NCBI GenBank assembly: GCA_012103475.1
Contig: WLWS01000003.1
Coordinates: 399,565-463,564 of the forward strand
Reading direction: 5' to 3'
From: Gammaproteobacteria bacterium
GTDB lineage: Bacteria > Pseudomonadota > Gammaproteobacteria > Eutrophobiales > Eutrophobiaceae
Length of the DNA stretch: 64,000 nt
In this document: positions 5,211 to 64,000 of the stretch, in pieces
Layout: each line of letters begins with the position of its first letter
How positions within the stretch are numbered: the first letter of the stretch is position 1
Notes under the pieces: generated by a model
Told to the model about the DNA's origin: nothing
The model's input: only the letters and a program-made list of their open reading frames with translations
Databases searched by the model: none
Program-made: the position numbers and the translations under genes

Positions 5211-5234
5211 CGATAATCAGCAGGTCTGCAAAGA

Positions 5235-46014: not shown

Positions 46015-47227
46015 GCGACGGTTAACTGGTTCATCACACCTGGTGCAATCAACCCGGGCCGGGGCGCTTTACGGCCTCGGGATGGTGATCTTCATCATTT
46101 TCGCAATGGCAACAAAATACCCTTTCTATCGTTTCGCACCACAATATACGGCGGCCACAGGTCTTTCCCTGCTGGATCCATTCAAACGGGAAGGGAAAAT
46201 TATTTTTCTCTTATTCAGTTTGCTGACATTATTTTCTTCATTCGTAGCGGTTGCTGCACTCTCCAGCGGGACCGCAGGTATCTCTATTCATGTTCTGGGA
46301 CTAAACCGGAGTCCTATGCAGATTGCTATTGCTGTATTGACTATTAACGTATTTCTGTTGAGTCTCGGGCGATATTACTGGCTCGATATTGTAATGAAGT
46401 TACTGATTCTGGTGCTGTCGATATCAACCATTGCCGCAACACTTCTCGCGATTCCCCTTATGGACTGGAATCAATCACTAAGCCTGTTACCTGTAAAAAT
46501 CGATAAAACCAGCATTGTCTTCGCTGTGACATTGGTTGGCTGGATGCCGGCGCCACTGGAAGCCGCTGTTGGTTTATCTTTATGGACAAAGGCCAAGGCG
46601 GACGTCACCGGTTACAAACCGAAAGTCAACGAATCTGTTCTGGATTTTCATGTTGGTTATCTGGGAACTTTGTTTCTCGCTATTTGCTTTTTGTTTCTGG
46701 GAACAGCGCTGATGCGCGGCTCGGATATCGAAATGGCGAAAGGTGTCGCTGGATTCACCAGTCAATTGATTTCTGTTTATGAAACCACTCTTGGCGATTG
46801 GAGTGGGCCGTTTATACGAATTGCGGCAGTCGCAGTGATGTATTCGACACTACTCGCTGCCACTGATAGTTTTGGACGAACTTTGAGCCGAATTTTTATG
46901 AGTCTGTGGAAAAAGGAACAGCCATGGATTGTTGAATCCGATAAACAACACAGAATTTTATACATAACATGTGTAATCGGCCTTAGTGTCGGAGGCCTGT
47001 TTGTGTTTCAACTGTTCGCCTCATCGTTCAGAGTGTTATTGGGTATAGCCACCAGTGCGGCTTTTATCTCGGCGCCGCTGATCGCACTATTAGTGCATCG
47101 AGCTATGACGGTTGATGAGTTAAGCATAAGCGTGCGACCGAAAAGAGGCCTGAGGTTATACAGTCTTGCCTGTATTGCGCTTCTCTCAATTTTCGCGATT
47201 GGCTACATCGGCTTATTATTGTGGTAA
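45977..47227 (+). CDS. NRAMP-related (COG1914-like) membrane transporter, apparently 5'-truncated
   Basis: 416-aa ORF. The recognisable transporter sequence starts at about 46028 (GSSHLVQSTRAGALYGLGMVIFIIFAMATKYPFYRFAPQYTAATGLSLLD). The first 17 codons overlap the TPR gene on the other strand. Possible real starts are the GTG at 46043 or the ATG at 46082. Confidence 0.55.
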   Translation: MYSTPRFTLVNATRRLTGSSHLVQSTRAGALYGLGMVIFIIFAMATKYPFYRFAPQYTAATGLSLLDPFKREGKIIFLLFSLLTLFSSFVAVAALSSGTAGISIHVLGLNRSPMQIAIAVLTINVFLLSLGRYYWLDIVMKLLILVLSISTIAATLLAIPLMDWNQSLSLLPVKIDKTSIVFAVTLVGWMPAPLEAAVGLSLWTKAKADVTGYKPKVNESVLDFHVGYLGTLFLAICFLFLGTALMRGSDIEMAKGVAGFTSQLISVYETTLGDWSGPFIRIAAVAVMYSTLLAATDSFGRTLSRIFMSLWKKEQPWIVESDKQHRILYITCVIGLSVGGLFVFQLFASSFRVLLGIATSAAFISAPLIALLVHRAMTVDELSISVRPKRGLRLYSLACIALLSIFAIGYIGLLLW

Positions 47228-47232
47228 ATAAA

Positions 47233-47255
47233 TTCCCTTGATATTGGAAAGGGAA
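47233..47255 (+). terminator. weak stem-loop after the transporter stop (possible terminator)
   Basis: TTCCCTT (47233-47239), a 9-nt loop, then AAGGGAA (47249-47255), lying 6 nt after the stop at 47227. No following T-tract, so support is weak. Confidence 0.2.
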
Positions 47256-47481
47256 ACATAAATAAATTCATATACCTGGCGTGGAAAGGTAATTTTTCTG
47301 TTCGATTCCTACCTGAACTTGCTGATATTAAAAACAATTAACTTAAATAGCTCCATTTGTTAACTGCGTCTATGCAAATCTTTTCGAATTGAGTTATAAA
47401 GCTGCGTCTTTTCAATTGTTTAGCACCCAATTGGCACAATGAAAAACGATCTGTAAATAGTCGGTAAGAGGGCAAATTTAA

Positions 47482-50400
47482 GTGAAACGTGTTGTCTCCA
47501 GACGAAAGTCTCGCATTCTAAAAACTAAAAAGGCAGTCTTCGAACTCAGGCCGCTTGCCGCCTGTGTTCGTAATATTGCTTTTCCTCTTGGTCTCATGCT
47601 GGGTGCCAGTGCGGCTCTCGCTGCACCGGAAAACGGTCATGTTGTTGCCGGACAGGGGCATATTAGTAAACCTAACGCGACAACGACCGTCATTAATCAG
47701 CAGTCCCATCGCCTTGCTGTGGACTGGGGTAGTTTCAACATCAACAGCAATGAACTGGTGCAGTTTAATCAGCCCTCCACTCAGGCATCGGCTCTAAACC
47801 GAATTCTTGATCAAAATCCAACACAGATTTTCGGCTCACTACGCGCTAATGGTCAGGTCCTGCTGGTCAATCCTAATGGGGTCTATTTTTCACCTACAGC
47901 AAGTGTCTCAGTTGGCTCTTTGGTCGCCTCCGGCCTCAACATTAATAATGACGACTTCATGGCCGGTAATTACAAGTTCGATGTGCCGTTCGATGATGAA
48001 GGTGGAGTAATCGTTAATCAGGGTCTGTTACAAGCTTCTACCGGAGGCTCGGTCACTCTGATAGGCGGGGCCGTGAAAAATGAAGGTCTGATTCTGGCTA
48101 CAGCGGGCTCAGTAAATTTACTCGCTGGCAAATCGGTAACCGTCGATTTCGATGGCGATGGTTTACTTCAGTTTGCTGTTAGCGAAGAGGTGCTCGCCAA
48201 CGTACATAATCTGGATAGCGCTGTCAGCAATAGCGGAGAAATCTCAGCGCCTGGCGGTTCGGTCCTGATGCAAGCCAGCGCTGCCAAAGATGTTTTTAGC
48301 AATGTCGTAAATAATTCCGGCATTGTGAGAGCAGGACGAATAGAGAACAAGGGTGGTCAGATACGGCTTGTTGCAACAGGTTCTTCAAACTCATTGATTA
48401 ACACCGGCACTCTGGATGCCTCTGGCAGTGACGGTGATGGTGGCAGCATAAAGATTTACGCCGACGATACAACACTCGTTTCCGGTGACAGCGCCATCAC
48501 GGTTTCCAGTGATTCAGGTAAAGCCGGAGAGATTCAGATACTGGGCGATAAAGTCGGCCTGACGGATAACACCTATATTAATGTATCCGGTCGGGATGGT
48601 GGCGGTGTCGCACTGATAGGTGGTGATTATCAGGGTGCTAACCCGGATATTCTAAACGCGACACAAACTATCCTCACGACTAATGTTGAAATTAATGCCG
48701 ATGCGCTTGAAAGTGGTGATAGCGGTAAAGTCGTCGTCTGGTCTGACCGGCTAAGTACTTTTTCAGGCACGATTAGTTCACGTGGTGGCGCCGAAAGTGG
48801 CGATGGTGGTTTAGTCGAGGTATCCGGTAAAGAGCACTTAAGTTTTAGTGGTGATGTTAATACCTCAGCCGTAAACGGTGAGACGGGCACCCTCTTGCTC
48901 GACCCGAAAAATATTGTTATTCAAAATGGTGGCGCAGGCACCGCTGTGGCAACTGTCAATTTTGCCGATCCTGCTGATCCTGGTGGACTCGATTCAATAT
49001 TTGATGCCGACGATCTCGCTGCACTGGATACCAATATAATTTTACAGGCCAATAACGACATCACCTTTGATGAAGCACTTGTTTTGAGTGCGGATGATTT
49101 AACAGCCCAGGCAGGGCGGAGTATTTTGGTAAACCAGAATATTACGACAGGTGGTGGGAATGTCACACTGACTGCTAACGATGCCAGTGCCACAGCATCG
49201 GAGCGAGGACCAGGTGACGGGTCTATCATTATGGCCGACGGTACGACGATTGATGCCGGTGCCGGTAACGTTTTGCTTGAATCTACAAACAACAACAGTC
49301 TGGGTGGCGATATTAGTGTTGAAAATATTACCAGTAGTGGCAACGTTACTCTCACCTCGGGCAATTCGTCCATCATTGAAAGCTCCTCCGATCATTTAGT
49401 CAGTGGCAACCTTGTAACTTTGAACGGTGCCAGCACAGCCGGCGAATCAGTGGGTAGTGCAAGCAGTGCCATTAATACCAGTGCAACTTCTCTGGCGGGC
49501 ACCGCCGGAAGCGGTGGTTTCTACGTCGAGGAAACCAACGCTGTCACCGTTACTGGCGTGTCCGGAACCGGTGATGTTGAAATTACAGCGACGACTGGTG
49601 ATCTAAGTCTTGATGATCTGACTGCGGTAAGCAGCACCAGTGGTAATATTACGCTGATAGCCACTACAGGGAGTATTCTTGACTCGACACCGGGTGCAGA
49701 TAGTGGCAGGCAAATAAGCACCTCCGGTAAAGTAACACTTACTGCAAGCCTGGGTTCTATCGGTAGCACAGGTACTGGTGATATCGACATTGATAATTCG
49801 CCGGATCTGGTACTGAATGCCGGAGCCGATCTGGTTGTCAGAGCGACCGCTGACTTGAGTGATCTATCCGTAACGGCAACTGCCGGAAATAATGAACACT
49901 TTGTTGATGCGACTAATCTGCTGGCCACAATTACGGATGACGCGAACGATTTTACTTCACTGAGCCTCACCGATAATTCAGGTTTGAATTTTACTTTTAT
50001 CGCCGCAAACGCTGTCTCGGGTGATGGCGACATCAACGTTGATTTAATCGACGTCAGTGGTGGTACCGGGGATGTGTTACTGGCGACCGGCGGTGGACAG
50101 ATTGTTGATGCTACCGCAGCCAATCAGGTTCGCGATATCATCGTTGCCGATGGCTCGGTGATTGCCCTGATTGCAGAAAATGCAACGAATGGTTCAGTCG
50201 GTGCTGTCGCTGATGCGCTGGATCTTGAAACGCAACAACTGTCTGTCAGTTCCGCCAATGATATCGATATAGAAAATTTCAGTGACGATGCTGGGACCGG
50301 AAAAGATCTGACGGATCTCGAAATTAAGGCCACTGCCGGTAACCATACTCATAGCATTGTAACGACAGCCAATCGACTTATTACTATAGACGATGATGCC

Positions 50401-53400
50401 ACCGATTTTAATCAGTTGAGTGTTGAATCGACTGGTGGACCACCACCGGCGCTGAATTTTAATTTTACTGCAGCCAACAGTAGTGCTGGTGATGGTGATA
50501 TCGCCGTTGACCTGATTGAAAGCGAAGGTGGTAACGTAATTATTACCTCAACTGCAGGCGTCATTTCCGATTTGGACAGTGGTGATACGGATAGAGACAT
50601 TATCGCAGGCGCGGGTAGTGTTGCCCTGTTTGCTGCCAGTGCTAATGGTGATGTCGGAGTTGCCGGTCAGACTCTGGAAGTGGATACCGCGATTTTGACT
50701 ATCAATGCTGGTAATGATTTTGACGTTGCTGTAGTTGCTGATGATGCTGGCAGCGGTCGAGATTTAAGTGATCTGGCCATCACTGCTGTGTCTGCAACTA
50801 ACACACATAGTTTGAGTGCGCTGAATCTCACCAATACCATCACTGACAACGCCACTGATTTTACCGACCTGAATCTTAATGATAGCACTGGATTAAATTT
50901 CTCTTTCACAGCGGCCAACCCAACGGCGGCTGAAGGTGATATTGCGATAGGTCAGATTGATGTGACCAACGGTGCGGTCTTCGTTACCTCTACCGCAGGC
51001 GCAATAACAGATGTGTCAGCTGGCGATACCGTGCGCGATATTATCGCAGGTACGGGGTTGATTAATTTATCCGCAAGCAGTGTCAATGGTGATGTTGGCG
51101 CGGCCGGTCAGGCACTGGAACTGGATACAGCAAATCTGACCATTGACTCGGGTAAGGATATCACCGTCGACGTCGTTTCCGACGATAGCAGCACTGGCCG
51201 GGATTTATTAAGTCTGGATATTACTGCCGTAGCCGGTTTAAATGCTCATGCTTTGACAGCCGGTGGTGGTTTGACCGTCACAATTGCGGATGATGCAACG
51301 GACTTTACCGATATCAGCGCAACAGGTGATGCGCTCCTGAATTTCTCTTTCGAAGCAGCGAATACGGCCGCAGGAGAAGGTGACATTACACTTGGCAGTA
51401 TCAGTGTCGGGTCCGGAGAGGTTGTACTTGTCTCTGCCAGTAATGGCGACAGCGGTATTGCCAGCGCTGCGGGTGCCGGGACAGATATTGCCACTACCGG
51501 AAATATTTTTGTCACGGCCGGTGCAGGCAGTATCGGCGCTGCCGGAAACCTTCTGGAAGTGACGGCGAATAATACTTTTGACGGCACCGCAAATTCAGGC
51601 GCGATTCATATACAGAATAATACCAACATCGCACTCGACTTTATTGCAGAAACGGATCTGTCAGATACAGTTGCTACCGATGTTTTTGAATACACCGTAG
51701 CCGGACTGGGGACACTCCAATATCTTTCTACGGATGACCTTAGTATTACGGCAAGTGGGGCGGCTGGGAGTATCAGCACAACTGGCGCCACCATCGTTGC
51801 TAATAATCTGGCGCTTAATACGGCGACTGGCACTATCACTGCAAATACAGATGCGACGACCATTTCCGTTGCCGGTACCGGTGGTAATTCAGTCACCATT
51901 ACCAACACCGGTACCAATGGCGATACGACTTATGACGTAAGCACGGGTGGTGCTGGCAATATCGATCTGACTCAAGCAGATAACAACATGCTTATCGGCG
52001 CCTTATCCACAACAGCGGATGTGACTCTGGATTCCGATCAGGGCGGCATCGATGATGCCCAGGCGGATGACATTACCGACATCACCTCGCTCAATCTGAA
52101 TATGACCGCATTGCAGGGTATTGGTAGTAATGCTCAGCTGGACGTTGATGCGAACCTTTCTGCAATTAACAGCAATGGCGGCGATATTGATATCCTCGGT
52201 AGCGGTGCCGGAGCAACAATGGTTACGGGTCTGGTGGAGTCCGGCGGTGGCGATATTTCGATCAGCGATAATGACGGGATTACTGTGGATGCTGGTATTG
52301 AAAACACCACAGAAGTTGCCATTAACTCAGGCGGCGGCGATATCACGCTCGACGCCGATCTCGATGATAACGGCGGTGGGACGTTTACCATTGATGATCA
52401 AATTGATGCAGGTGCTGGAGACATTCTCATTACGGGAAGTGCTTACGATGTTCAGGATGACGCCGATCTGGAAACCTCAGGCGCTGGCGATGCCACATTG
52501 GAAGCCTCTGTTGCCGCATTGACTTATACACTGGGTGATGCCGCCACCGGTGGCAGCATTGATTTCAGCGATGCGCAAATGGACGCCTTGGTCGTGGCCG
52601 GAGTATTAACCATTGGTGATGCGAGTGCTGGTGCCATTGTGCTTGATCGGGCCACTTCTTTCGGTGCTAATAATCTGGAAATTATCACCGGCTCAACTAT
52701 TGACGATGCCCAGACCGGGAATGCTCTGACGACAACGGGTTCATTAACTCTGACGGCTAATGGTGAAGTTGGATCCAATGCGGGCTCGGGGGCAGACGGT
52801 TTAACTTTGGATGTGGGTTCACTGATAATCACCAGTACCGGCAATAATAATGTAACGATTACCGATTCAGGCGCAGGTGGTGACACTAACTATCAAATTG
52901 GCAGCGATGGAGGTGATGTAGTTGGTGATGTGACTATTACTCAGGCGACCAATGATATAACACTGGGTGCCGGCGCGAATGCCGGCATTAATGCAGTTGG
53001 TGATACGGTGACCTTAACCGTGTCAGCTGGATCGATTGTCGACAACAATGGCAGTAATCAGGACATCATCGCCGATTCCCTGAATATTACCGATGTGCTT
53101 AATATTGGCGATCTGGACGATACGAATAATGTCCTGGTAGCTGCAATTGATAGTATCGAAACCACTATTGCAACATTGACGAATGTGGTGCTGCGTTCAG
53201 GTGGTGAAGGTGCGATCGCGAATACCGGCGTTTTGGTGGTTACCGCTTTCGATCTGGCTGGCGCTGGTGCAAACGCGAGTTTATTGATTGAAGCGGATGA
53301 CACAATTAACGCGGGGACAGCAACCTTTGGCGGAATCAATTCCGGAGACGCGCTTGGTTTAGTAGCGTCTTCCAATAACCTTGAGATACCCGATGCGGCA

Positions 53401-56400
53401 CTGGATCTGGGTACGGGTAATTTGAGACTCAGCGCTGCTGCAGGTGATGTACGTGATAATACTGATAGTGATTTAAGTAATAACTTAATCAGTGTGAGCA
53501 ATTTGTCTATCTCTTCTGGCACAGCGGAAACTATCGACATCAGCGTGGATGATCTGGAAGCGCACATCAATGGTGCGAGTAACAGCCTGACCGTGACCGA
53601 GGCCGATGCTCTCGTTCTCAGCAATGTCGATACTTTTGATGGTGCCATCATGATCACTGCGATGGGGACGATAACGGCGACAGACGTTGAGTCGACAAAT
53701 AATTTCAATACCGCGACCAATGACATTACGCTCATTGCCAATACTAACGCAACGGATGATATTCTGGTCACCACGATTACCGCCAATGGTAACGCCGGTG
53801 TCATTCTGACAGCGATGGACGACATACTGGATAGCAATACCACCGATGCCAATATATTGAGCGCGGCGGATTTAACGGCAACAGCGACATCAGCGACGGC
53901 AGATACCGACGGCATCATTCTTGATACAGCTGTCACGACACTCGATGCCTCTGTTTTGACCAATGCCGGTGATATAACCATTGTTGATAGTGACGGCATC
54001 ACCCTGGGTGATGTCGATACCGCCAATGGCGCAATTAATGTAAGCGCCGCGGGTGCGCTTGTTGCCAGTGATGTCGTTTCGGTCGGTGGCAGTATCTCAC
54101 TCACCAGTACTGCTGCAGGTGATATCAGCATTGGTGCAATAAACTCGGCAACGACGGTTTCGATTGATGCTGCCAATGGCACCGGAAGCGGATCAATATT
54201 TGATGCCGACAATGATGCTGCCACTGACATCACCGCTGGAGGTTTAATCACTCTGGATGCGAGTGCGGATATAGGTAGTGCTCAGGCTGACGATGTTCTT
54301 GAACTGGCCGGTGGTTCGACAGTTGACGCCAGCTCGGATACATCGGGCGAAATCAAACTGGCCGGTATCGGTGGTGGTCTGAATTTACAGAACCTTGATA
54401 CAGCCGATGGAGAAATTGACGTCAGTGCGGCTGGCGCTATCGTTGCAACGAACATAGTTTCCGTCGGCGGAGAAATTTCTCTCACTAGCACCGCCGTCGG
54501 TGATGTAACTGTTGGTCTTATCAATTCTGCAGATACGGTCACAATTGATGCAGGCACAGGATCAATTAAGGATAGCGCTGATGATGCAATTGTAGATATC
54601 ACCGCGGTTAATTTAATTACTCTCGATGCAACTGGTGATATAGACGGTGGATTCACTGATGATAATCTCGATCTGGCAGCCGGTTCTACGGTCGATGTCA
54701 GTTCTACTACTGCCGGGGAAATTAAATTGGCAGGCATTGGTGGCGGCCTCAATTTACAGGATGTCGATACCGTCAATGGCCTGATAGAGGTTACCGCAGC
54801 CGGGGCAATTGCCGCCAGTGACGTAGTTTCAATCGGTGGAAGTGTAGTTATAAACAGCACAGCGTCTGGTGACATCAGCGTAGGCACAATAAATTCCGCG
54901 ACCACTGTGAATATTGACGCTAATAGTGGTTCGATTATTGATGCTGCCAATGATGCAGTCACAGATATTACCGCAGCTGGTCTGATTACTCTGGACGCCA
55001 GTGGTGACATTAATGGTGGCGCTGCTGACGATAACCTGGAACTGGCTGCTGGCTCGACCATTGATGCAAGTTCGACCGGCACCGGTGAAATTAAACTGGC
55101 CGGAATAGGTGGTGGTTTAACACTGCAGAATATTGATACCAATAATGGTGAGATAGAAGTGACCGCCGCGGGTGCCATTGTGGTTACCAATGTCAATGCC
55201 TCGGGTGGTGAAGTGTTGATTCATAGCACTGCAACAGGTGATATTACACTCGACGAAACAGGTGCCGGTGGTGGCGTTGTGACTGACGATAGCAGTACCA
55301 CTGCGGTTGTTATTATAAATGATGACGGCGACATTCTTGATGCGGATACCGCAACTCCCGATGATCTGGAAGCAGGTCAGAATCGTTATAACATCACAAC
55401 CGGTGCGGGCGGTACAGTAAACCTGCAAGCGAACGGGGCTGGCAGTAGTATTGGCGGCACAGTTCCGGATCATGATGATATTGATGTATCTAACGCGAGA
55501 AACATCGACTTCTCTGCCAGTGCGAATGTCTTGACTCAACTTGATCCTTCTGGCGCAACCGGACTCGACAGCGCTACTTTTACCCTGACGCCTGATGGTG
55601 TTGCCTCCGATTACAGTGTTCGCGTAGTTGGCGGAACCAATATTTCTTTTTCAGAATCAACAGACGGTCTGTTTAAGATTGATGACATCAGCAACAGTAA
55701 TAACTTACTGGATTTTTCCTTTACCACACTTGGCCCGATTGGCGGCGCGACAATCAGCGACATCGTTCTGGATAGCAGTGGCGGTACCGCAATACAGGCC
55801 ATTAATGGCGGCACAGTTACTCTGAATGCAAACGGGTCTATTGGTGATGCCAATGATGACACGATTGTCGACATAGACACTTCGGGTCTAATTACTTTTA
55901 TCGCTAACGATGAGATTCTCGGAGACACTCAGGGGGGTGGTTTTACTGATAATTTTATTGAGCTTTCTGCTGGAGCCATAATTAATGCCTCTTCCACTAC
56001 CAGTGGCGACATTATGCTCGATGGTGCAGGTGCGCTGACTTTACAGAATGTCGTAACAGCCGATGGTGCGATTGTGATCAATGCGGCAGGCGCGGTAGTG
56101 GTGACTAATGTAGATACCTCCAACACCGATATTGATGCGAATGATGTCTCTATCACGACCACGACTGGTGATATTGATATCACCGCTATCAATGCAGGAA
56201 CTTTGGGTGATGTTGTGCTCGATACAGATGCCGGTACAGTGGATGGCGTTGGCGGCGGTACACATATCAGTGCCGACGATCTGACTATCGATGCGACTAG
56301 CGGAATCGGTGCGGGTGTGACTCTGAATCTTGCGGGCGTCAATCAGCTCGACACCGATACCACTGCGGGTAATATCGATATCACCAATACAGCAACTGCT

Positions 56401-59400
56401 GCCACGGTGGTCATGAGCGTGACTACGGCTGGTGCGGCAACGATCGACTATACGCAAAGTGGTGACCAGTCTCTTGAAATGACCACACTAACAACAAGTA
56501 ATGGTGACATTACTATCGCTAACAGTGGTGGAAGCAATGCTGATATCACGATTGGCGATATCGATACGGACACTGTCGACGATCAGGTCATGATCACCTC
56601 TTCAGGTGCTGTCGATGATGCGGCAGCTGACGGAGTCAATGATATTTCAACGGTAACCCTGAGTATCAATGCTGAAGAGGGCATCGGCGCCGGTGCTGCT
56701 CTGGAAATTACTGCGAATGCGATAAGTGCGGATACGACGGGTGGCAATATTGATATTGATAACGCTGCCCTCGGGGCAGTCACAGTGAGTAGTTTAACAA
56801 CGGCAGGAACAGCAACGATTGCTTACGATCAAACAGGCAATCAGAGTCTGGATCTGGATTCAGTGACTACTGCAGACGGCAATATTGATGTTACTAACAT
56901 GGGTGGTACCGACGCGGACATCACGATTGGTAACGGCGCTATAGTGGCAGATGCAACGAATGACGTAGTGACGATAAATTCCAGTGGTGCGATTGACGAT
57001 GATACGGCGAATCCCGATACCACGACTGATATTACTGCGTTCAGTATCGATCTTGATGCCGTAGAGGGCATTGGTGCGACAGCGGATGTGGACATAGCAG
57101 CAACAACTGTGGATGCCGATGTCAGCGCAGCAGGTAATATCGCCCTGAACGAAGCCGATGCAGTAACTTTATCCAGCCTGAGTACCAACGATGGCTCTAT
57201 AACGGTAGCAGCCGGTGGTGCAGTGACAGTGACTGGTGTGGACAGTTCCAATACCAACTCTGATGCGAACGACGTGAGCATAACGACGAGCACGGGTGAT
57301 ATTGATATTAATAACATCGACGCCGGAACCCTGGGCGATGTTGTGGTTGATACAGATGCGGGGACAGTTGATGGCATAGGCGGCGGCCCGCACATCACTG
57401 CGGATGATTTGCAGATTGATGCGACGACAGGAATTGGTGCCGGTGTTCAGTTGAGTCTGAGCGGAGTTGATCTGCTGGATCTTGATACGACTGCCGAAGC
57501 AATTGATATCACTAATGCCGCGACAGGAGAAACTGTACTAATCAGTTCAGCAACAACAGGCAATGGCAATGTTGATATAGTCACGACCGGAGCGAATGCG
57601 GACATCACAATTGCGGACGGCGCCATTGTGGCTGATCAAACGGACGATATAGTCAGCATTAATTCGTCCGGGGCCATAGATGACGCCCAGGCAAATCCAG
57701 ATACAACGACAGATATTACCGCATTTAGTATTGATTTAGACTCAGTTGATGGCATCGGTGGAACAGCCGATGTCGATATAGCGGCGAATACAGTGGATGC
57801 GGATGTCAGTTCAGCAGGTAATATCGCACTGAACGAAGCCGATGCAGTGATCCTATCCAGCCTGAGTACCAATGATGGTTCTATTACGGTGACAGCAGGC
57901 GGTACGGTGACGGTGACTGGTGTGGATAGCTCTAATACCAATTCGGATGCCAACGATGTCATCATTACAACAAGCACGGGTGATATTGATATCAATGGCA
58001 TCAATGCCGGGGCGCTGGGTGATGTCGTGGTCGATACCGATGCCGGGGCTGTAGATGGTTTGGGCGGTGGCACGCACATCAGTGCAGATGATTTACAAAT
58101 TGATGCGACGACAGGAATCGGTGCGGGTGTTCGCTTAAGTCTAAGTGGTGTGGATTTGCTGGACCTTGACACGACTTCAGGTTCTATAGATGTACTCAGC
58201 GCGGCCGGCGGCAAAACCGTGTTAGTCAGTTCAGCAAAAACGACTGATGGCGATATCGATATCGCTACGAGCGGAGCAAATGCTGATATTACGATCGCTG
58301 ACGGCGCAATAGTTGCCGATCTAACTGACGACATTGTTAGCATTATTTCTTCCGGAGCGATCGATGACGCACAGGCAAATCCGAATACTGCGACTGACAT
58401 TACGGCTTTTAGTATCGTTCTGAGTGCACTTGACGGTATTGGGGCAACGGCTGACGTAGATACGAATACCACTACACTGGATCTCAACGTAACGAATGCT
58501 GGCCTGATCGCCATTAATGAATTGGATGGCCTTACGGTAACAAGCGCCGTGACTACTGACGGTAACATCACAATTGCCGCCGGTGACAACATGGAAGTCG
58601 GAACTATTACGGCTGGAAATGCGATGACTATCGATTTATCCACGACCGCTGGCGATATCACCGATACAAACGGTGATAGTGATTTGACGGCAAGCAACAT
58701 CAGTCTGGATGCAGCCGGCGGAATAGGAAGTAACACGAACAATATTAATACCACCACAACGAATGCTCTGACCTTAATGAGTGCAGGTGCAGGTACAACC
58801 GGTGATATATTCATAGATGAAACCACATCAATGGATACCGGCGATGTGATGGTGACTACCGCGGTTGCCACATCACAAAGCGTATCAATTGAGGCAAATG
58901 ACTGGACAGTGGACGCTGGTCTTGGTAATGCTCAGGACAATCTTAGTCTGAGCTCATCGGCTGGTAGCATAGTCGATGGCGGAGGCACGTTAACGGCCAA
59001 TACCCTGACTCTGGATGTCAGCGCAACCGGTGGCGCAACGATTGGTGCAACCGGCGCAGGTAATGAAATCGAAACCAATGTTGCCACACTCTCTGTGGAT
59101 GCCAGTAACGGTGCGGGTGGAATATTCATTAATGAAGTGGACGGCGTTGATCTGGCTTTCGTTGATAGTGGTACCGGCGCGTTCGAGATTTCTACTAATG
59201 GCGATCTTACTGACAGCGGCACGATCACTGTCGGCACGACGACCAACATCGACACCGGCGGAAATAACGTCAGTCTGGATAATGGCGACGGGCTTAATGA
59301 TTTTGGCGGTGATGTCACCTTAAATAATGTTGACAACGTTCTGATTGAAGACAGTAACGCGATTCAGTTTGCTACATCCACAATCGGCGGTACCTTTGAT

Positions 59401-62400
59401 GTAACAGCCGGTGGTGATATCACAGACTCCGGCACCTTGACGGTGACGGGAGTCACGACTCTGGATGCGGGCGGTAACGACGTGATTCTGGATGATGTGA
59501 ACAACGACTTCATGGACACGGTGAATGTGAGTAACACAAACAACCTGACGATAGACGATACCAATGCGCTGACACTGGGCACGGTAAGCACGGCTAATAA
59601 TGCTGATATTGATGCGGGTGGTGCAGTCGACTTCACTGGTGTCACTACGGTTGGTGGCACTTTGAATGTGGACACCACGGTGAACGGTGCGGGTGGTGCA
59701 ATAACGGATATCGGTGGCCAGTTATTAATCACCGGCACAACGACTCTCGACGCAGCAGCTAACGATATCGTTCTGGATAACCCTGCGAATGACTTCGGTG
59801 GCGCGGTGACTATTACTAACGCTAGCAATGTTGATATTCAGGACAGCGACAATATTGATTTCGGCGCATCAACAATCGGAGGCACATTCGATGTGACAGC
59901 CGGTGGCGACATTACCGATTCCGGCACCTTGATGGTCACCGGTGTTACAACGCTGGATGCGGGTGGTAACGACGTGATTCTGGATGATATGAACAACGAC
60001 TTCATGGACACAGTAAATGTCAGTAACACAGACAACCTGACGATTGATGACACTAACGCGCTGACACTGGGCACGGTAAGCACGGCTAATAATGCCGATA
60101 TTGATGCTGGCGGTGCAGTTGACTTTACCGGCGTCACCACAGTCGGTGGCACGCTGAATGTGGACACCACAGCGAATGGTACGGGTGGGACGATAACCGA
60201 TACGGGTGGTCAGTTGCTGATCACCGGCACGACGACACTGGATGCGGCCGCTAACGATATAATACTGGATAACCCGGCGAATGATTTTGGTGGTGCCGTT
60301 GCCATTACCAACGCAAACAATGTTGATATTCAGGACAGCGACAATATTGATTTCGGCGCTTCAACGATCGGCGGCACCTTTGATGTAACAGCAGATGGTG
60401 ATATCACAGACAGCGGCACCTTGATGGTCACTGGTGTTACAACGCTGGATGCGGGTGGTAACGACGTGATTCTGGATGATGTGAACAACGACTTTATGGA
60501 TACGGTGAATGTCAGTAACACAGACAGTCTGACGATAGACGATACCAATGCGCTGACATTGGGCACGGTAACAACGACCAACAACGCGGATGTTGATGCA
60601 GGTGGTGCGGTCGACTTCACCGGCGTCACCACAGTCGGTGGCACGCTGAATGTGGATACCACAGCGAATGGTGCAGGCGGTGCAATAACGGATACCGGTG
60701 GCCAGCTGTTAATCACCGGTACAACTACACTGGATGCCGGTGCGAATGTAATTACGCTCGATGAAGACACGAATGATTTTGACGGGGCGCTAACTTTAAC
60801 CAATACGGGCGCCAATGTAGTGACGATTCATGATTCCAACGATCTGGCTATCGACACTGTCAATGTCGGCGATAATCTTGTGCTTAATTATGATCGCGGT
60901 GCGAATGACAGTTCCACTCTCGATTTATCAGCCGCAACGGTAAACACGGGTACCAACGCAATCAGCATAGATGCTCAGGGAAGTGATGACGCCATTCTGA
61001 TGAGCAACACCGCCAATGTCTGGACAACCACGGCTACAAATAGCGGTACCGTGAATGATGGCACCAATACCTTCACCTACACCGACGTGGCCAGTCTGAC
61101 AGGTAATGACATGACGGATACTTTTAACATTGGCCACAATGTTGATGGGACTATCAGCGGTGGTGATGGAGCCAATATTTACAATCTTAATGCAGGCACA
61201 GTCGGTGGTAATATCACAGGCGGCGCGAATGCGGATACTTTTAATTTTACCAACGCCTCGGTAACAGGAACTGTGAATGGCGCAGATGGAGTCAATACTC
61301 TTGATTACTCAGCATTCGCCGCGGCGCCTGTTGCGGTCACACTGACAACGACAGACACAAACGGTTTTCAGGGTACAGCCGACAATACCGGCGGTTTTCA
61401 GAACATGACTAATCTGACCGGTAGCGGTAACGCAGCCGACACGCTGACCGGAGTCAATGCGGATGCGACCTGGAGCATTCAGGCAGGTGATGAGACCTAT
61501 GTCAGTGGTGGAGAAACGCTGACTATCGCTGATGGCACTATCCGGAATTTCATCGGTGGCAGCGCTGTTGATACCTTCAATGTCACTGCGAATAATACAA
61601 ATAACCTTGCCGGTGGTTCAGGCAACGATAATTTCAACCTGAATGCCGGCGCGCTTGGCGGCGTGATGGCAGGTGGTCTGGGGATTGATACTTTCAATCT
61701 GAATGGTGGTACGGTCACTGGCACAGTCAATGGCGGCGGCGGAACAGCAGACAGTTTAGTCGGGGGTAGCAGCTATACACTCACAGGAAATAATTCCGGC
61801 ACTAATGCCGCGATAGGCGGTGGCTGGAGCAATATTGAAAATCTCACCGGCACAGCTGGCAACGATACATTCAATTTCAACAACGGCACGCTCTCCGGAA
61901 CGGCAGATGGTCTGGCTGGTAATGATCTCTTTGATTTTAACGGCGGTACTGCCGGCAGTATCGATGGGCAGGGTGGGGTGGATATTCTTAACTTTGCTAA
62001 CGCCGGCGGCCAGACCATAGCGATTACCGGTCTGGGTGGCACCGACGGATTTTCCGGCACATCGACTAATGTCACGAATTCCTTCGACGACATCAATACG
62101 ATTATCGGCAGTGCGGCTACGGATACTCTGGGGAACGCCAGCAATGCAGACTCAACCTTTAACATCAATAACGGAAGCGGCACGTTTGTGTCCACCAACA
62201 CACTGGTGTTTTCATCTCTTGATAATTTTGCCGGTGGCAGTGGCTCAGACACATTCAATATCACTGGTGACCATACAGGTAATCTGAGCGGCGGCGCCGG
62301 CAATGATGAATTTAACTCTACGAGCGCAAACGTAAATGGCAACGTCACCGGTGGCAGTGGGGTGAATACCTACGAGCTGGGCAGCGGACGGGTCAATGGA

Positions 62401-63756
62401 ACAATCGTTGTCAGCGGCAATGATATCTGGATTCATACAGCCGGTGTTCAGCTGGCGGATTCGGTCACTGGCAACGGTAGTTTAACAATCCCCAATACTA
62501 CCGGTGGCGGACTGATCGTCAGTGATGCGAGTGGCAATGATCTTGTTGTCGACTCGAGTGATTTAAATTTGCCAACTCTGAGCGGATTCAACGGACACTT
62601 GATTATCGGTGGTCTGTTATTGCCGCCTACCTTACCGATTAGTGGCGATTCGCAGGTTAACGTCAATACCGATTTATTAACAATAAACGAAAATATTGTT
62701 ACTAATGGTGATTTGACTTTACTGGGCAGTAACGTCGATCTGAACGCGGATTTAAATGCCGGTGGCATTGGTGGTGACGATATTCTTATCGTAGCAGTGG
62801 GCAGCCAGAATGGTGGCAGCGATCCGGGTAATATTACTGCTGTGGCAACACCCACCACTATCGAAGCTGGCAGCCTCACATTGATCGCGGCCAATGATAT
62901 TGTCAATTCGGAAAGTATTGATGTGGAATTAAATGGTGGTGAAATACAGGTGGCTGTCGGAGAGGGTGTGGAAACTCCTCAGTTTGGTTTGCTTGATGCA
63001 ACAGCAGCGGATTTATCTGTTGCAACCAGTGCATTTATAACAAGTTTTTTCAATACCAACTTGCAGTCGGTAGGACAAAACGTCAGTGCGGCTAATCAGG
63101 CAGGTGGCTTAATCGGACTTGAACAGCTGGGAAATATCGATGTCGGCTTGTTTGAGGAAGAGCTGACTCTGTTTGGCGCAATCGGCGGTGGTATCGCCTT
63201 GAGTTTATATATGTGTGAGGAAGTAGAAGGTTGTGCTCCGAATGTCAATGAGACAGAGCTGGCTGAGTTGATTCTGAATTTACAGGCAAGGCTTGAAGAA
63301 TTGAAAACGCGTGTTGCCGAGGAAGGCGATGGCGAGTCAAAAACAGAGTTGGAAAACCTGATTTCCGCTTATGAAGAAGAATTGCGTAATTTCGAGTCCT
63401 ATCGGGAAGAACTCCGGAAATTCTTTTCTGAAGACGAGGGAAGTACTCAAAATGAAGAACAAAGCAGTGTTGATGTTTCTACTCAGGTCGATAATTTGCG
63501 TGATGTTCTACAGGTTGCCCAGTCTCGAATTGACTGGCTGGAAAGTCTGAAATCTGATCCTGAAACACGTGCGAGTTTAAGTCAGCGTAGTGGTATCGAT
63601 TTAACCATAGAACAATTAGAAATAATCATTAATGCGACTCAACAGGAAATGCTAATGCTTGAGAGACAAATACAGTCATTACTTGATGGTGTGGAGGCAC
63701 ACAACGAAGCACCGGTGTTTAGTCAAAAACTGGCGGAAGCAAATTTGTGGTATTGA
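47482..63756 (+). CDS. giant (5,424 aa) two-partner-secretion (TpsA) exoprotein / filamentous-haemagglutinin-family adhesin-like protein
   Basis: GTG start 9 nt after AAGAGGG. Basic N-region plus signal peptide ending SAALA|AP (to about 47622). Canonical TPS domain: GHVVAGQGHI..., TTVINQQSHRLAVDWGSFNI, ELVQFNQPS..ALNRI, IFGSLRANGQVLLVNPNGVYF. Then GGLVEVSGKEHLSFSG...GTLLLDPKNIVI. About 5,000 aa follow of T/D/G/A/I/N/V/S-rich beta-helix-like repeats with very few K/R/H/aromatics. Confidence 0.92.
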   Translation: MKRVVSRRKSRILKTKKAVFELRPLAACVRNIAFPLGLMLGASAALAAPENGHVVAGQGHISKPNATTTVINQQSHRLAVDWGSFNINSNELVQFNQPSTQASALNRILDQNPTQIFGSLRANGQVLLVNPNGVYFSPTASVSVGSLVASGLNINNDDFMAGNYKFDVPFDDEGGVIVNQGLLQASTGGSVTLIGGAVKNEGLILATAGSVNLLAGKSVTVDFDGDGLLQFAVSEEVLANVHNLDSAVSNSGEISAPGGSVLMQASAAKDVFSNVVNNSGIVRAGRIENKGGQIRLVATGSSNSLINTGTLDASGSDGDGGSIKIYADDTTLVSGDSAITVSSDSGKAGEIQILGDKVGLTDNTYINVSGRDGGGVALIGGDYQGANPDILNATQTILTTNVEINADALESGDSGKVVVWSDRLSTFSGTISSRGGAESGDGGLVEVSGKEHLSFSGDVNTSAVNGETGTLLLDPKNIVIQNGGAGTAVATVNFADPADPGGLDSIFDADDLAALDTNIILQANNDITFDEALVLSADDLTAQAGRSILVNQNITTGGGNVTLTANDASATASERGPGDGSIIMADGTTIDAGAGNVLLESTNNNSLGGDISVENITSSGNVTLTSGNSSIIESSSDHLVSGNLVTLNGASTAGESVGSASSAINTSATSLAGTAGSGGFYVEETNAVTVTGVSGTGDVEITATTGDLSLDDLTAVSSTSGNITLIATTGSILDSTPGADSGRQISTSGKVTLTASLGSIGSTGTGDIDIDNSPDLVLNAGADLVVRATADLSDLSVTATAGNNEHFVDATNLLATITDDANDFTSLSLTDNSGLNFTFIAANAVSGDGDINVDLIDVSGGTGDVLLATGGGQIVDATAANQVRDIIVADGSVIALIAENATNGSVGAVADALDLETQQLSVSSANDIDIENFSDDAGTGKDLTDLEIKATAGNHTHSIVTTANRLITIDDDATDFNQLSVESTGGPPPALNFNFTAANSSAGDGDIAVDLIESEGGNVIITSTAGVISDLDSGDTDRDIIAGAGSVALFAASANGDVGVAGQTLEVDTAILTINAGNDFDVAVVADDAGSGRDLSDLAITAVSATNTHSLSALNLTNTITDNATDFTDLNLNDSTGLNFSFTAANPTAAEGDIAIGQIDVTNGAVFVTSTAGAITDVSAGDTVRDIIAGTGLINLSASSVNGDVGAAGQALELDTANLTIDSGKDITVDVVSDDSSTGRDLLSLDITAVAGLNAHALTAGGGLTVTIADDATDFTDISATGDALLNFSFEAANTAAGEGDITLGSISVGSGEVVLVSASNGDSGIASAAGAGTDIATTGNIFVTAGAGSIGAAGNLLEVTANNTFDGTANSGAIHIQNNTNIALDFIAETDLSDTVATDVFEYTVAGLGTLQYLSTDDLSITASGAAGSISTTGATIVANNLALNTATGTITANTDATTISVAGTGGNSVTITNTGTNGDTTYDVSTGGAGNIDLTQADNNMLIGALSTTADVTLDSDQGGIDDAQADDITDITSLNLNMTALQGIGSNAQLDVDANLSAINSNGGDIDILGSGAGATMVTGLVESGGGDISISDNDGITVDAGIENTTEVAINSGGGDITLDADLDDNGGGTFTIDDQIDAGAGDILITGSAYDVQDDADLETSGAGDATLEASVAALTYTLGDAATGGSIDFSDAQMDALVVAGVLTIGDASAGAIVLDRATSFGANNLEIITGSTIDDAQTGNALTTTGSLTLTANGEVGSNAGSGADGLTLDVGSLIITSTGNNNVTITDSGAGGDTNYQIGSDGGDVVGDVTITQATNDITLGAGANAGINAVGDTVTLTVSAGSIVDNNGSNQDIIADSLNITDVLNIGDLDDTNNVLVAAIDSIETTIATLTNVVLRSGGEGAIANTGVLVVTAFDLAGAGANASLLIEADDTINAGTATFGGINSGDALGLVASSNNLEIPDAALDLGTGNLRLSAAAGDVRDNTDSDLSNNLISVSNLSISSGTAETIDISVDDLEAHINGASNSLTVTEADALVLSNVDTFDGAIMITAMGTITATDVESTNNFNTATNDITLIANTNATDDILVTTITANGNAGVILTAMDDILDSNTTDANILSAADLTATATSATADTDGIILDTAVTTLDASVLTNAGDITIVDSDGITLGDVDTANGAINVSAAGALVASDVVSVGGSISLTSTAAGDISIGAINSATTVSIDAANGTGSGSIFDADNDAATDITAGGLITLDASADIGSAQADDVLELAGGSTVDASSDTSGEIKLAGIGGGLNLQNLDTADGEIDVSAAGAIVATNIVSVGGEISLTSTAVGDVTVGLINSADTVTIDAGTGSIKDSADDAIVDITAVNLITLDATGDIDGGFTDDNLDLAAGSTVDVSSTTAGEIKLAGIGGGLNLQDVDTVNGLIEVTAAGAIAASDVVSIGGSVVINSTASGDISVGTINSATTVNIDANSGSIIDAANDAVTDITAAGLITLDASGDINGGAADDNLELAAGSTIDASSTGTGEIKLAGIGGGLTLQNIDTNNGEIEVTAAGAIVVTNVNASGGEVLIHSTATGDITLDETGAGGGVVTDDSSTTAVVIINDDGDILDADTATPDDLEAGQNRYNITTGAGGTVNLQANGAGSSIGGTVPDHDDIDVSNARNIDFSASANVLTQLDPSGATGLDSATFTLTPDGVASDYSVRVVGGTNISFSESTDGLFKIDDISNSNNLLDFSFTTLGPIGGATISDIVLDSSGGTAIQAINGGTVTLNANGSIGDANDDTIVDIDTSGLITFIANDEILGDTQGGGFTDNFIELSAGAIINASSTTSGDIMLDGAGALTLQNVVTADGAIVINAAGAVVVTNVDTSNTDIDANDVSITTTTGDIDITAINAGTLGDVVLDTDAGTVDGVGGGTHISADDLTIDATSGIGAGVTLNLAGVNQLDTDTTAGNIDITNTATAATVVMSVTTAGAATIDYTQSGDQSLEMTTLTTSNGDITIANSGGSNADITIGDIDTDTVDDQVMITSSGAVDDAAADGVNDISTVTLSINAEEGIGAGAALEITANAISADTTGGNIDIDNAALGAVTVSSLTTAGTATIAYDQTGNQSLDLDSVTTADGNIDVTNMGGTDADITIGNGAIVADATNDVVTINSSGAIDDDTANPDTTTDITAFSIDLDAVEGIGATADVDIAATTVDADVSAAGNIALNEADAVTLSSLSTNDGSITVAAGGAVTVTGVDSSNTNSDANDVSITTSTGDIDINNIDAGTLGDVVVDTDAGTVDGIGGGPHITADDLQIDATTGIGAGVQLSLSGVDLLDLDTTAEAIDITNAATGETVLISSATTGNGNVDIVTTGANADITIADGAIVADQTDDIVSINSSGAIDDAQANPDTTTDITAFSIDLDSVDGIGGTADVDIAANTVDADVSSAGNIALNEADAVILSSLSTNDGSITVTAGGTVTVTGVDSSNTNSDANDVIITTSTGDIDINGINAGALGDVVVDTDAGAVDGLGGGTHISADDLQIDATTGIGAGVRLSLSGVDLLDLDTTSGSIDVLSAAGGKTVLVSSAKTTDGDIDIATSGANADITIADGAIVADLTDDIVSIISSGAIDDAQANPNTATDITAFSIVLSALDGIGATADVDTNTTTLDLNVTNAGLIAINELDGLTVTSAVTTDGNITIAAGDNMEVGTITAGNAMTIDLSTTAGDITDTNGDSDLTASNISLDAAGGIGSNTNNINTTTTNALTLMSAGAGTTGDIFIDETTSMDTGDVMVTTAVATSQSVSIEANDWTVDAGLGNAQDNLSLSSSAGSIVDGGGTLTANTLTLDVSATGGATIGATGAGNEIETNVATLSVDASNGAGGIFINEVDGVDLAFVDSGTGAFEISTNGDLTDSGTITVGTTTNIDTGGNNVSLDNGDGLNDFGGDVTLNNVDNVLIEDSNAIQFATSTIGGTFDVTAGGDITDSGTLTVTGVTTLDAGGNDVILDDVNNDFMDTVNVSNTNNLTIDDTNALTLGTVSTANNADIDAGGAVDFTGVTTVGGTLNVDTTVNGAGGAITDIGGQLLITGTTTLDAAANDIVLDNPANDFGGAVTITNASNVDIQDSDNIDFGASTIGGTFDVTAGGDITDSGTLMVTGVTTLDAGGNDVILDDMNNDFMDTVNVSNTDNLTIDDTNALTLGTVSTANNADIDAGGAVDFTGVTTVGGTLNVDTTANGTGGTITDTGGQLLITGTTTLDAAANDIILDNPANDFGGAVAITNANNVDIQDSDNIDFGASTIGGTFDVTADGDITDSGTLMVTGVTTLDAGGNDVILDDVNNDFMDTVNVSNTDSLTIDDTNALTLGTVTTTNNADVDAGGAVDFTGVTTVGGTLNVDTTANGAGGAITDTGGQLLITGTTTLDAGANVITLDEDTNDFDGALTLTNTGANVVTIHDSNDLAIDTVNVGDNLVLNYDRGANDSSTLDLSAATVNTGTNAISIDAQGSDDAILMSNTANVWTTTATNSGTVNDGTNTFTYTDVASLTGNDMTDTFNIGHNVDGTISGGDGANIYNLNAGTVGGNITGGANADTFNFTNASVTGTVNGADGVNTLDYSAFAAAPVAVTLTTTDTNGFQGTADNTGGFQNMTNLTGSGNAADTLTGVNADATWSIQAGDETYVSGGETLTIADGTIRNFIGGSAVDTFNVTANNTNNLAGGSGNDNFNLNAGALGGVMAGGLGIDTFNLNGGTVTGTVNGGGGTADSLVGGSSYTLTGNNSGTNAAIGGGWSNIENLTGTAGNDTFNFNNGTLSGTADGLAGNDLFDFNGGTAGSIDGQGGVDILNFANAGGQTIAITGLGGTDGFSGTSTNVTNSFDDINTIIGSAATDTLGNASNADSTFNINNGSGTFVSTNTLVFSSLDNFAGGSGSDTFNITGDHTGNLSGGAGNDEFNSTSANVNGNVTGGSGVNTYELGSGRVNGTIVVSGNDIWIHTAGVQLADSVTGNGSLTIPNTTGGGLIVSDASGNDLVVDSSDLNLPTLSGFNGHLIIGGLLLPPTLPISGDSQVNVNTDLLTINENIVTNGDLTLLGSNVDLNADLNAGGIGGDDILIVAVGSQNGGSDPGNITAVATPTTIEAGSLTLIAANDIVNSESIDVELNGGEIQVAVGEGVETPQFGLLDATAADLSVATSAFITSFFNTNLQSVGQNVSAANQAGGLIGLEQLGNIDVGLFEEELTLFGAIGGGIALSLYMCEEVEGCAPNVNETELAELILNLQARLEELKTRVAEEGDGESKTELENLISAYEEELRNFESYREELRKFFSEDEGSTQNEEQSSVDVSTQVDNLRDVLQVAQSRIDWLESLKSDPETRASLSQRSGIDLTIEQLEIIINATQQEMLMLERQIQSLLDGVEAHNEAPVFSQKLAEANLWY
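49852..51640 (+). repeat. about four diverged tandem units of ~150 aa inside the giant ORF
   Basis: Unit anchors D-L-x-D-L-x-[IV]-x-A-x-A-G-x-x-x-H start at 49852, 50305, 50761 and 51202 (spacings 453, 456 and 441 nt). Each unit continues ...DDATDFT.L....LNF.F.AAN...G.GDI....I.V..G. Confidence 0.8.
54010..55250 (+). repeat. about 3.3 tandem units of 123 aa (369 nt) inside the giant ORF
   Basis: The IKLAGIGGGLNLQ anchor occurs at 54352, 54721 and 55090 (exact 369-nt spacing). The units share VSAAGA.VA..VVS.GG.I.LTSTA.GD..VG.INSA.TV.IDA..GSI.D...DA..DITA..LITLDA.GDI. Confidence 0.85.
56914..58620 (+). repeat. about 2.5 tandem units of 228 aa (684 nt) inside the giant ORF (a more diverged copy lies just upstream, from about 56040)
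   Basis: The ADITI(G/A)(N/D)GAIVAD anchor occurs at 56914, 57598 and 58282 (exact 684-nt spacing). Long blocks are shared, e.g. ANPDTTTDITAFSIDLD..(E/D)GIG.TADVDIAA.TVDADVS.AGNIALNEADAV.LSSLSTNDGSITV.AGG.VTVTGVDSSNTNSDANDV.ITTSTGDIDIN. Confidence 0.88.
59371..60846 (+). repeat. three tandem units of 164 aa (492 nt) inside the giant ORF, each made of two ~82-aa sub-units
   Basis: The STIGGTFDVTA(G/D)GDITDSGTL anchor has its T-I codons at 59380, 59872 and 60364 (exact 492-nt spacing). By eye, protein identity is about 90% and nucleotide identity lower. Identical runs include AATGTTGATATTCAGGACAGCGACAATATTGATTTCGGCGC. Confidence 0.9.
61150..62380 (+). repeat. block of about 13 dispersed RTX-like G-G-x-G-x-D-x-F-N motifs inside the giant ORF
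   Basis: GGDGANIYNL, GGANADTFNF, GADGVNTLDY, GGSAVDTFNV, GGSGNDNFNL, GGLGIDTFNL, GTAGNDTFNF, GLAGNDLFDF, GQGGVDILNF, GGSGSDTFNI, GGAGNDEFNS and GGSGVNTYEL are spaced roughly 20-45 aa apart. Confidence 0.7.
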
Positions 63757-63764
63757 GAGTTAAT

Positions 63765-64000
63765 CTAAAGACTCGATTTTTCCCATTCTAGCAGAGAGTT
63801 TTGAACCTGTTTTAAGAGCTTGTCTGCACTTGAAGGCAATTGTCGACCTACCCGGGTGGCGACAACGGCTATGCTGCTACTCAGGGCTGAATTGTCAACG
63901 CGGACTGAAACGAGTTTTCCCTCAGCCAATTCCTGAGATACCGCCAAATCAGACAAAAAACTTATACAGTCTCCCCGCATTACACAGTTTTTTAGCAATA
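63765..64000 (-). CDS. LysR-family regulator, C-terminal (effector-binding domain) end only; runs off the right edge
   Basis: The reverse ORF ends at 63765, 8 nt from the giant ORF stop (convergent). ...GDCISFLSDLAVSQELAEGKLVSVRV...IAVVATRVGRQLPSSADKLL resembles the C-terminal end of LysR substrate-binding domains. The apparent Met is only a TTG at the window edge. Confidence 0.5.
   Translation of the reverse strand, partial: LLKNCVMRGDCISFLSDLAVSQELAEGKLVSVRVDNSALSSSIAVVATRVGRQLPSSADKLLKQVQNSLLEWEKSSL

Follow-up and report, generated by a model that had tools for sequence, protein, structure and literature searches.

The TpsA exoproteins of two-partner secretion (TPS), i.e. type Vb secretion, carry TPS domains that are recognised by the POTRA domains of TpsB transporters, and one TpsB may serve several TpsA proteins, orphans included (PMC10449530; PMC5422565). 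FhaC serves FhaB, FhaL and FhaS, and the TpsB2 of Neisseria meningitidis serves five TpsA proteins (PMC10449530; PMC5422565). Co-location of tpsA and tpsB is usual and is not obligatory (PMC5422565; PMC10449530). The gene considered here is a giant tpsA that lies near the right end of a 64,000-nt stretch of contig WLWS01000003.1 (assembly GCA_012103475.1), from a gammaproteobacterium of the Eutrophobiaceae; this whole stretch is referred to as the window. A first-pass annotation of the window had described the gene as encoding a giant TpsA-type exoprotein, probably Ca-binding, whose transporter is unlinked. The 16.3-kb tpsA gene is intact and real and is not an assembly artefact. The overall picture that we favour, with a probability of about 0.72, is of a functional type Vb passenger that is exported by an unlinked TpsB and forms a beta-helical surface fibre.

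Integrity of the gene and of its secretion domain

The tpsA gene (47482-63756, plus strand) is a single open reading frame (ORF) with a GTG start that encodes 5,424 amino acids (aa), 536 kDa and a pI of ~4.05. A Shine-Dalgarno-like AAGAGGG is found at 47466-47472, 9 nt 5' of the GTG. Over the length of the gene the coding frame contains one stop, the terminal one, as against 323 and 533 in the other two plus-strand frames, and the public gene call (P0262; NCBI, ENA, nr) is 100% the same protein as the window ORF. An ortholog, L003, on a 2.76-Mb contig of an independent metagenome-assembled genome (MAG; CBDEUC010000003.1), is colinear with the window gene, with 68% aa identity over aa 1-599 and 67-70% nucleotide identity over more than 10 kb, and is open across all 3,903 codons in view.

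Concatenation of repeats during assembly, a hazard that the first-pass annotation had raised, was looked for and is not the case. The longest exact direct repeat inside the ORF is 48 nt and no 50-mer is duplicated; the most similar tandem units, an array at 59375-60737 detected by TRF (period 492 nt, 2.8 copies), show 84% DNA matches. These values, together with the colinear ortholog on an independent long-contig MAG, rule out the concatenation. The main difference between L003 and the window gene is a larger number of copies of a ~228-aa repeat unit (block C, below) in the former (L003:18500-21722 versus window 56800-58500); repeat copy number therefore varies between lineages, and does so without loss of the reading frame.

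The composition of the protein is extreme. Eight residue types (T, D, G, A, I, N, V and S) amount to 81% of it, or 89% together with L, and 79 lysines and arginines stand against 745 aspartates and glutamates for a net charge of about -666; F, Y and W together account for 2.8%. Cysteine occurs three times, once in the signal peptide (residue 28) and as a C-x5-C pair near the C-terminus (residues 5245 and 5251). The first-pass description of a 5,424-aa ORF with a biased composition, extreme acidity, few basic or aromatic residues and only three cysteines so placed is therefore accurate in each of these respects.

The N-terminus is that of a secreted TpsA protein. An extended Sec signal peptide (aa ~1-47; 47482-47622, plus strand) was delimited by inspection and a Kyte-Doolittle hydropathy profile; its n-region is basic, its hydrophobic core spans aa 26-45 and it has an ALA|AP site, a layout that is kept in relatives. 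It is followed by the TPS secretion domain (aa 48-311; 47623-48414, plus strand), which matches PF05860 with E 6.6e-31 (108.6 bits against a cut-off of 33.5) and NCBIfam TIGR01901 with E 8.4e-19 (67.3 bits against 29.1) and carries the TPS motifs NPTQI at aa 112 and NPNG at aa 130. The nearest solved TPS domains in the PDB are those of EtpA (8cpk/8vba, E 9e-45), HMW1 (2odl, E 3.6e-35) and HxuA. With an intact ORF and a TPS domain of the adhesin type, the assignment to the giant TpsA exoproteins stands. The identity of the TPS domain is 66-70% to relatives that have an adjacent TpsB and 73% to the unlinked ortholog L003; because it is equally close to both, the secretion signal is not degenerating.

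The absence of tpsB from the window and the arrangement of related loci

The search for tpsB covered 47 kb upstream of the gene and 244 nt downstream of its stop, and "nearby" is thus covered on the upstream side. No match was obtained by tblastn of the window with two TpsB proteins at E<=10, nor at E<=1 with a profile hidden Markov model (HMM) that draws on 22 TpsB ORFs from related loci and was run against six-frame ORFs of at least 80 aa; Omp85 and POTRA domains are likewise absent among all of the window ORFs of at least 345 aa scanned with Pfam. The earlier statement that the window has no Omp85/POTRA (FhaC/ShlB-like) ORF is thus borne out by three kinds of search.

Related loci show what a linked arrangement looks like. 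TpsB stands beside TpsA in 25 of the 34 loci that were recovered via the TPS domain, mostly directly upstream, and it lies downstream of shorter TpsA genes in L011, L015-L018 and L028. In the clade to which the window protein belongs, the layout is a cassette in which a serine/threonine kinase (STK) that carries an FGE-sulfatase domain at its C-terminus, a PP2C phosphatase and an FHA-domain guanylate/adenylate cyclase are encoded on one strand; the genes for a PpiC-type rotamase, for TpsB and for the giant TpsA are divergent from these. This layout is seen in L001, L002, L004, L037 and L038 (e.g. L037:1899-11650), and the cassette is found also in L036. The cassette is linked in most members of the family; a search of the literature on its link to TPS found no relevant paper, and the link is thus unreported in the literature searched. 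The kinase/PP2C/FHA-cyclase part is reminiscent of the module for threonine phosphorylation in type VI secretion. The cassette is absent from the window, in which tblastn with all five cassette proteins gave no match at E<=1e-3. These tblastn and HMM searches turned up no remnants of tpsB or of the cassette genes in the window.

The gene might still not be an orphan, if tpsB lay just outside the window, either past the LysR gene that follows tpsA or more than 47 kb upstream. The window does stop 244 nt after the tpsA stop, and the shorter TpsA genes named above have TpsB on their downstream side. However, the LysR gene is convergent with tpsA, and the clade keeps its TpsB directly upstream, where 47 kb of the window are empty of it. 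Moreover, 57 metagenomic loci were recovered via the C-terminal module of the protein (described below); the downstream flank extends over 3 kb or more in 34 of them, and a TpsB downstream of the module occurs in none of the 34; a TpsB just past the right end of the window would therefore break the habit of the family. The ortholog L003 also argues against a linked transporter: in the 10 kb upstream of its tpsA neither TpsB nor the cassette was found by tblastn and HMM (the cassette at E<=1e-3). The neighbours of the L003 gene are unrelated to those of the window gene, and the unlinked state is therefore common to the two closest known members despite their differing surroundings. A tpsB just beyond the ends of the window is on these grounds improbable.

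A physical separation of giant gene and transporter is suggested by a third case, in which both are seen on one contig of 615,010 bp (ERZ21736675:ctg14146l). One locus on it, L035, holds a giant DUF5649 gene that ends at position 10,722 and shares the C-terminal module at 49-51% identity. The other, L036, at 287-309 kb, is a complete cassette; its TpsB is intact, has 611 aa and is separated from the giant gene by 286 kb or more, and no TpsA-like sequence was found within 10 kb on either side of the L036 cassette. Right after the L036 TpsB, at L036:11979-12527, a 182-aa ORF matches the core of the C-terminal module, its C-x5-C included, with E 6.5e-17. Either this ORF is what is left of a tpsA that was deleted, or the module exists here as a unit by itself. 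Elsewhere, at L090:6910-11400, a C-terminal module that is split into two ORFs (9908-10807 and 10816-11400) adjoins an STK-FGE kinase gene, with no PP2C, cyclase, rotamase or TpsB between the kinase and the module fragment; L090 looks like a decayed locus.

These loci also bear on the possibility that the window gene is a stranded relic, cut off from its TpsB cassette by rearrangement, without a compatible transporter, unsecreted or silent, and decaying. Loci of the family are evidently dynamic, since L036 keeps a TpsB with a 182-aa C-terminal remnant and L090 only a kinase beside a fragmented module, and no promoter-like site was found in the leader of the window gene. Against decay stand the 16.3 kb free of stops and frameshifts, the fully conserved TPS motifs and the plausible Shine-Dalgarno sequence ahead of the start. 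That so long a frame is open, and that an intact ortholog exists at only 68% aa identity, points to long-term purifying selection on the unlinked tpsA. A relic is accordingly judged quite improbable, somewhat more so than a tpsB lying just out of view.

An unlinked transporter appears, by analogy with these loci, to be the best reading. The first-pass claim to this effect is supported indirectly: by L003, which has no TpsB in the 10 kb upstream of its gene, by L036, whose TpsB lies hundreds of kilobases from the giant gene of its contig, and by the lack of a downstream TpsB in the 34 flanked loci.

The putative fibre, its C-terminal module and a proposed route of export

C-terminal of the TPS domain, self-BLASTP of 120-aa segments resolves five families of diverged repeats, all on the plus strand. 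Block A (aa ~720-1360; 49639-51561) has about 4 units of ~150 aa at 40-58% identity, and block B (aa ~2100-2650; 53779-55431) about 4 units of ~123 aa at 60-70%. Block C (aa ~2820-3710; 55939-58611) consists of the ~228-aa units, with identity up to 88%. Block D (aa ~3900-4460; 59179-60861) has about 3.3 units of 164 aa at 87-94% aa identity and gives the strongest DUF5649 matches; block E (aa ~4470-5040) is Gly/Asn-rich and irregular. DUF5649, which is listed among the stalk domains of fibrillar-adhesin-like proteins (PMC8286594), is matched in 10 stretches (E 8.5e-72) and is the sole passenger domain in Pfam; a Pfam search of six overlapping segments at E<=10 gave only noise beyond it. A beta-helix is predicted by AlphaFold2 (AF2) for aa 5010-5175, at a predicted local distance difference test score (pLDDT) of 80-90.

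Within the Gly/Asn-rich region an RTX-like block (aa ~4540-4960; 61099-62361, plus strand) was picked out by a scan for GGxGxDxF motifs as a candidate Ca-binding segment. Five such motifs occur in the protein, four at aa 4711-4942 with a spacing of ~20 residues and a fifth at aa 5094, and the block has a weak phmmer match to the RTX block of CyaA (E 0.0025). The Pfam family HemolysinCabind (PF00353) gave no match in the giant protein even at E<=10, and the AF2 model of the block, with a mean pLDDT of 52, was not used. Because the motifs are few, the CyaA match marginal, the HemolysinCabind match lacking and the model unusable, calcium binding is at most plausible, for ~450 aa of the protein; the "probably Ca-binding" of the first-pass annotation is thus retained in a weaker form, on the strength of the motifs and of the CyaA match.

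The RTX-like motifs near the C-terminal end and the acidic, cysteine-poor composition also recall the giant RTX adhesins LapA and MpIBP, and type I export of the same sort might be imagined, the TPS-like N-terminus then being incidental. In that N-terminus, however, a Sec signal peptide is followed by a TPS domain that matches strongly and over its full length; besides the lack of a HemolysinCabind match, no ABC, MFP or TolC genes occur among the window ORFs scanned, and most relatives have an adjacent TpsB. Type I export is therefore hardly credible here.

The feature that defines the family is a C-terminal module of ~240 aa at the end of the protein, which the first-pass annotation had overlooked. 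Sixteen homologs of the last 424 aa, at 35-51% identity, were aligned with it, and from this 17-sequence alignment a module profile was built. The core (aa ~5205-5260; 63094-63261, plus strand), with the invariant Cys5245 and Cys5251, has the almost invariant motif ...IDVGLFEEELTLFG.IG.GIAL.L..CEE.EGCAPNV.E.EL... and then passes into an acidic helical region; all of the invariant columns, D..LF...L.L..IG.G..L.L..CEE..GCAP.V, are present in the window protein. The acidic tail (aa ~5257-5408; 63250-63705, plus strand) is predicted to be helical or coiled-coil: the AF2 model of the last 424 aa has a mean pLDDT of 70, with helices at query residues 257-408 modelled at pLDDT ~75. A search of 1.84 billion proteins with the profile, which the window protein matches at 599.8 bits, yielded 292 representatives, 135 of them at E<=1e-30. 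The module is always found at the extreme C-terminus, in proteins of up to 7,815 aa, and a TPS N-terminus like that of the window protein is shared by many of the proteins that bear it. By these sequence matches the window protein belongs to a large uncharacterised environmental clade in which a TPS domain, a DUF5649 beta-helix and the C-terminal module are combined; database annotation of the clade goes no further than [quoted passage not shown].

A very large TpsA protein with a distinct, non-repeat C-terminus could in principle be a CdiA-like protein of contact-dependent toxin delivery with an overlooked toxin tip. The giant protein, however, contains no VENN, (E)LYN, LYVN or PT motif and no match to FHA-1, FHA-2, DUF637, PT-VENN or toxin families of Pfam. 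Its C-terminus, far from being polymorphic, is conserved at 35-51% identity and has at least 292 representatives. Nor is there an immunity-like ORF, or room for an immunity gene, in the 8 nt that separate tpsA from the convergent LysR gene; a convergent PmbA/TldD gene follows the giant gene in L035. The CdiA reading is rejected on these grounds as very improbable, in agreement with the first-pass remark that the protein does not look like CdiA, and the Pfam search for a toxin domain that might have been missed found none.

If the favoured picture holds, export would proceed as follows. The extended signal peptide would lead the 536-kDa, acidic and almost cysteine-free chain through Sec, and the TPS domain would then dock on POTRA domains. 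These would belong to a TpsB of the ShlB/FhaC family, probably one of the cassette type, whose gene lies elsewhere in the genome and which acts in trans. The extreme acidity and the scarcity of cysteine may keep the chain unfolded until it emerges. Once threaded out, it would fold progressively into a very long beta-helical fibre, made up of the five repeat families, the DUF5649 units and the short RTX-like stretch. Presumably this fibre would have a length of the order of 100 nm, a value that we extrapolate from assumed dimensions of the FHA shaft. The C-terminal module could be exported last, so as to cap the fibre, or could stay behind in the periplasm to serve there as an anchor or as a regulatory end, as with the FhaB prodomain, and its two invariant cysteines may form a loop made by DsbA. 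The likely role of such a fibre would be in adhesion, aggregation or matrix formation and not in toxin delivery; with its net charge of -666 it would be the dominant influence on how the surface behaves, for instance in aggregation, in attachment to particles and in the binding of cations.

A more far-reaching and distinctly tentative proposal, which we consider unlikely, is that the clade represents a signalling-coupled form of two-partner secretion, in which a periplasmic module would report the state of the fibre to the kinase/PP2C/FHA-cyclase cassette, and the fibre gene of the window would be uncoupled from the cassette but served and sensed in trans. It is hinted at by the 182-aa copy of the module that follows the L036 TpsB and by the module fragment that adjoins the L090 kinase, and can be likened to the threonine-phosphorylation pathway of type VI secretion. 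Were this true, the C-terminal module, with its Cys-loop and acidic coiled coil, would stay in the periplasm and act as a reporter of fibre state.

Several points weigh against the picture of a functional fibre that is exported by an unlinked TpsB. No TpsB from the same genome is seen, the data searched being the window. The leader (47228-47481) yielded no sigma-70 consensus. The L036 locus may simply be in decay and of no service to the distant giant gene. As to the fibre itself, AF2 models the conserved core of the module at pLDDT <50 only, and Foldseek found no structural homolog of the module in the PDB at E<=1e-3; we infer from sequence the adhesive function, the role of the module and the calcium dependence of the fibre.

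Neighbouring genes and comparison with described systems

Upstream of tpsA lies a gene for a polytopic membrane protein of 416 aa (45977-47227, plus strand) that is outside the secretion system. It is weakly NRAMP-like (NCBIfam Nramp_1, 44.3 bits, below the cut-off of 50) and has no Pfam match. The word "truncated" in the first-pass description of it is not supported, as 416 aa is the full length of the family. Between this gene and tpsA is the AT-rich leader (47228-47481, plus strand; 254 nt, 33% GC), which contains the Shine-Dalgarno-like site described above; it cannot be aligned with the leader of L003, and the tpsA promoter that the first-pass annotation placed in it is putative. A search for a terminator consensus found none. 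Downstream, the convergent gene of a LysR-type regulator (63765-64000, minus strand), whose C-terminal 77 codons are in the window, has its stop 8 nt from the tpsA stop, as the first-pass annotation had it, and matches LysR_substrate with E 3.9e-8.

The remainder of the window is of another character. Positions 1-39000 are mostly catabolic and contain nothing related to secretion: two molybdoenzymes of the xanthine-dehydrogenase family, several Rieske ring-hydroxylating oxygenases, an extradiol dioxygenase, a meta-cleavage hydrolase, an amidase, a formamidase, an OHCU decarboxylase and a 1,013-aa DUF748 protein. Other ORFs of at least 345 aa encode regulators, major facilitator superfamily (MFS) transporters and a PilW-like TPR protein. 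A 401-codon MFS transporter gene (39446-40651, minus strand) has a single in-frame stop at codon 186 with MFS_1 in both halves, and is a probable pseudogene or sequencing error. At 25901-29349 (minus strand) a MASE1+CHASE ORF (27250-29349) and a GGDEF+EAL ORF (25901-27427) overlap by 178 nt in different frames and are probably one sensor diguanylate cyclase/phosphodiesterase gene that is split by a frameshift. An uninterrupted 693-aa ORF (8011-10092, minus strand) joins an AraC-type regulator (ligand-binding and helix-turn-helix regions, aa 26-327) to a luciferase-like monooxygenase (aa 339-653), either as an unusual fusion or through loss of a stop codon.

Among described systems, the orphan TpsA proteins of Bordetella (FhaS and FhaL) and of Neisseria meningitidis resemble the window gene in that the TPS domain is intact and tpsB is not next to the gene. 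They are, however, paralogs of linked TpsA proteins in the same genome; the window protein is larger, has DUF5649 in place of Fil_haemagg repeats and ends in a different C-terminus. The orphan arrangement is uncommon and already documented, and because it is documented in Bordetella and Neisseria the headline feature of the locus is not new. It remains of practical consequence: predictors of secretion systems that require an adjacent TpsB miss giant TpsA genes of this kind, since these can sit far from their transporter.

EtpA of enterotoxigenic E. coli and HMW1 of H. influenzae, which have the closest solved TPS domains, are both beta-helical secreted adhesins. They differ in being only ~1,500-1,800 aa long, in their glycosylation by operon-encoded glycosyltransferases and in their adjacent TpsB; the window has no such genes, and the likeness of its protein to EtpA and HMW1 is confined to the N-terminal ~300 aa. 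FhaB/FHA of Bordetella, a giant TpsA likewise, is comparable in its extended signal peptide and its beta-helical shaft, and its C-terminal region, which stays in the periplasm and controls maturation (PMC4542190), offers a model for the module of the window protein. The window protein nevertheless shows no similarity to the FhaB repeats or prodomain (no PF05594, no PF13332) and has no proline-rich region, and in the fha locus fhaC is present. The giant RTX adhesins of the LapA and MpIBP/SiiE type share its extreme size and acidity, a near absence of cysteine and RTX-like motifs near the C-terminal end, and they too are probably surface fibres; they differ by type I secretion via a C-terminal signal, by having neither a Sec signal nor a TPS domain, and by repeats that are Ig-like and not beta-helical.

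Other members of the clade, such as P0263 (7,815 aa), P0273 and P0281, have the same three-part architecture, with 45-51% identity in the module and 66-70% in the TPS domain, but their gene directly follows tpsB in the STK-FGE/PP2C/FHA-cyclase/rotamase cassette, of which the window has nothing. Since the orphan arrangement is already on record, the finding is useful and unsurprising. It delimits a large environmental family of TPS fibres of 3,000-7,800 aa whose diagnostic mark is the C-terminal module, for which there is neither a Pfam model nor a structural homolog, and it leaves that module and the linkage of the clade to its cassette as candidates for separate attention. The window protein is a new member of this abundant and uncharacterised environmental clade.

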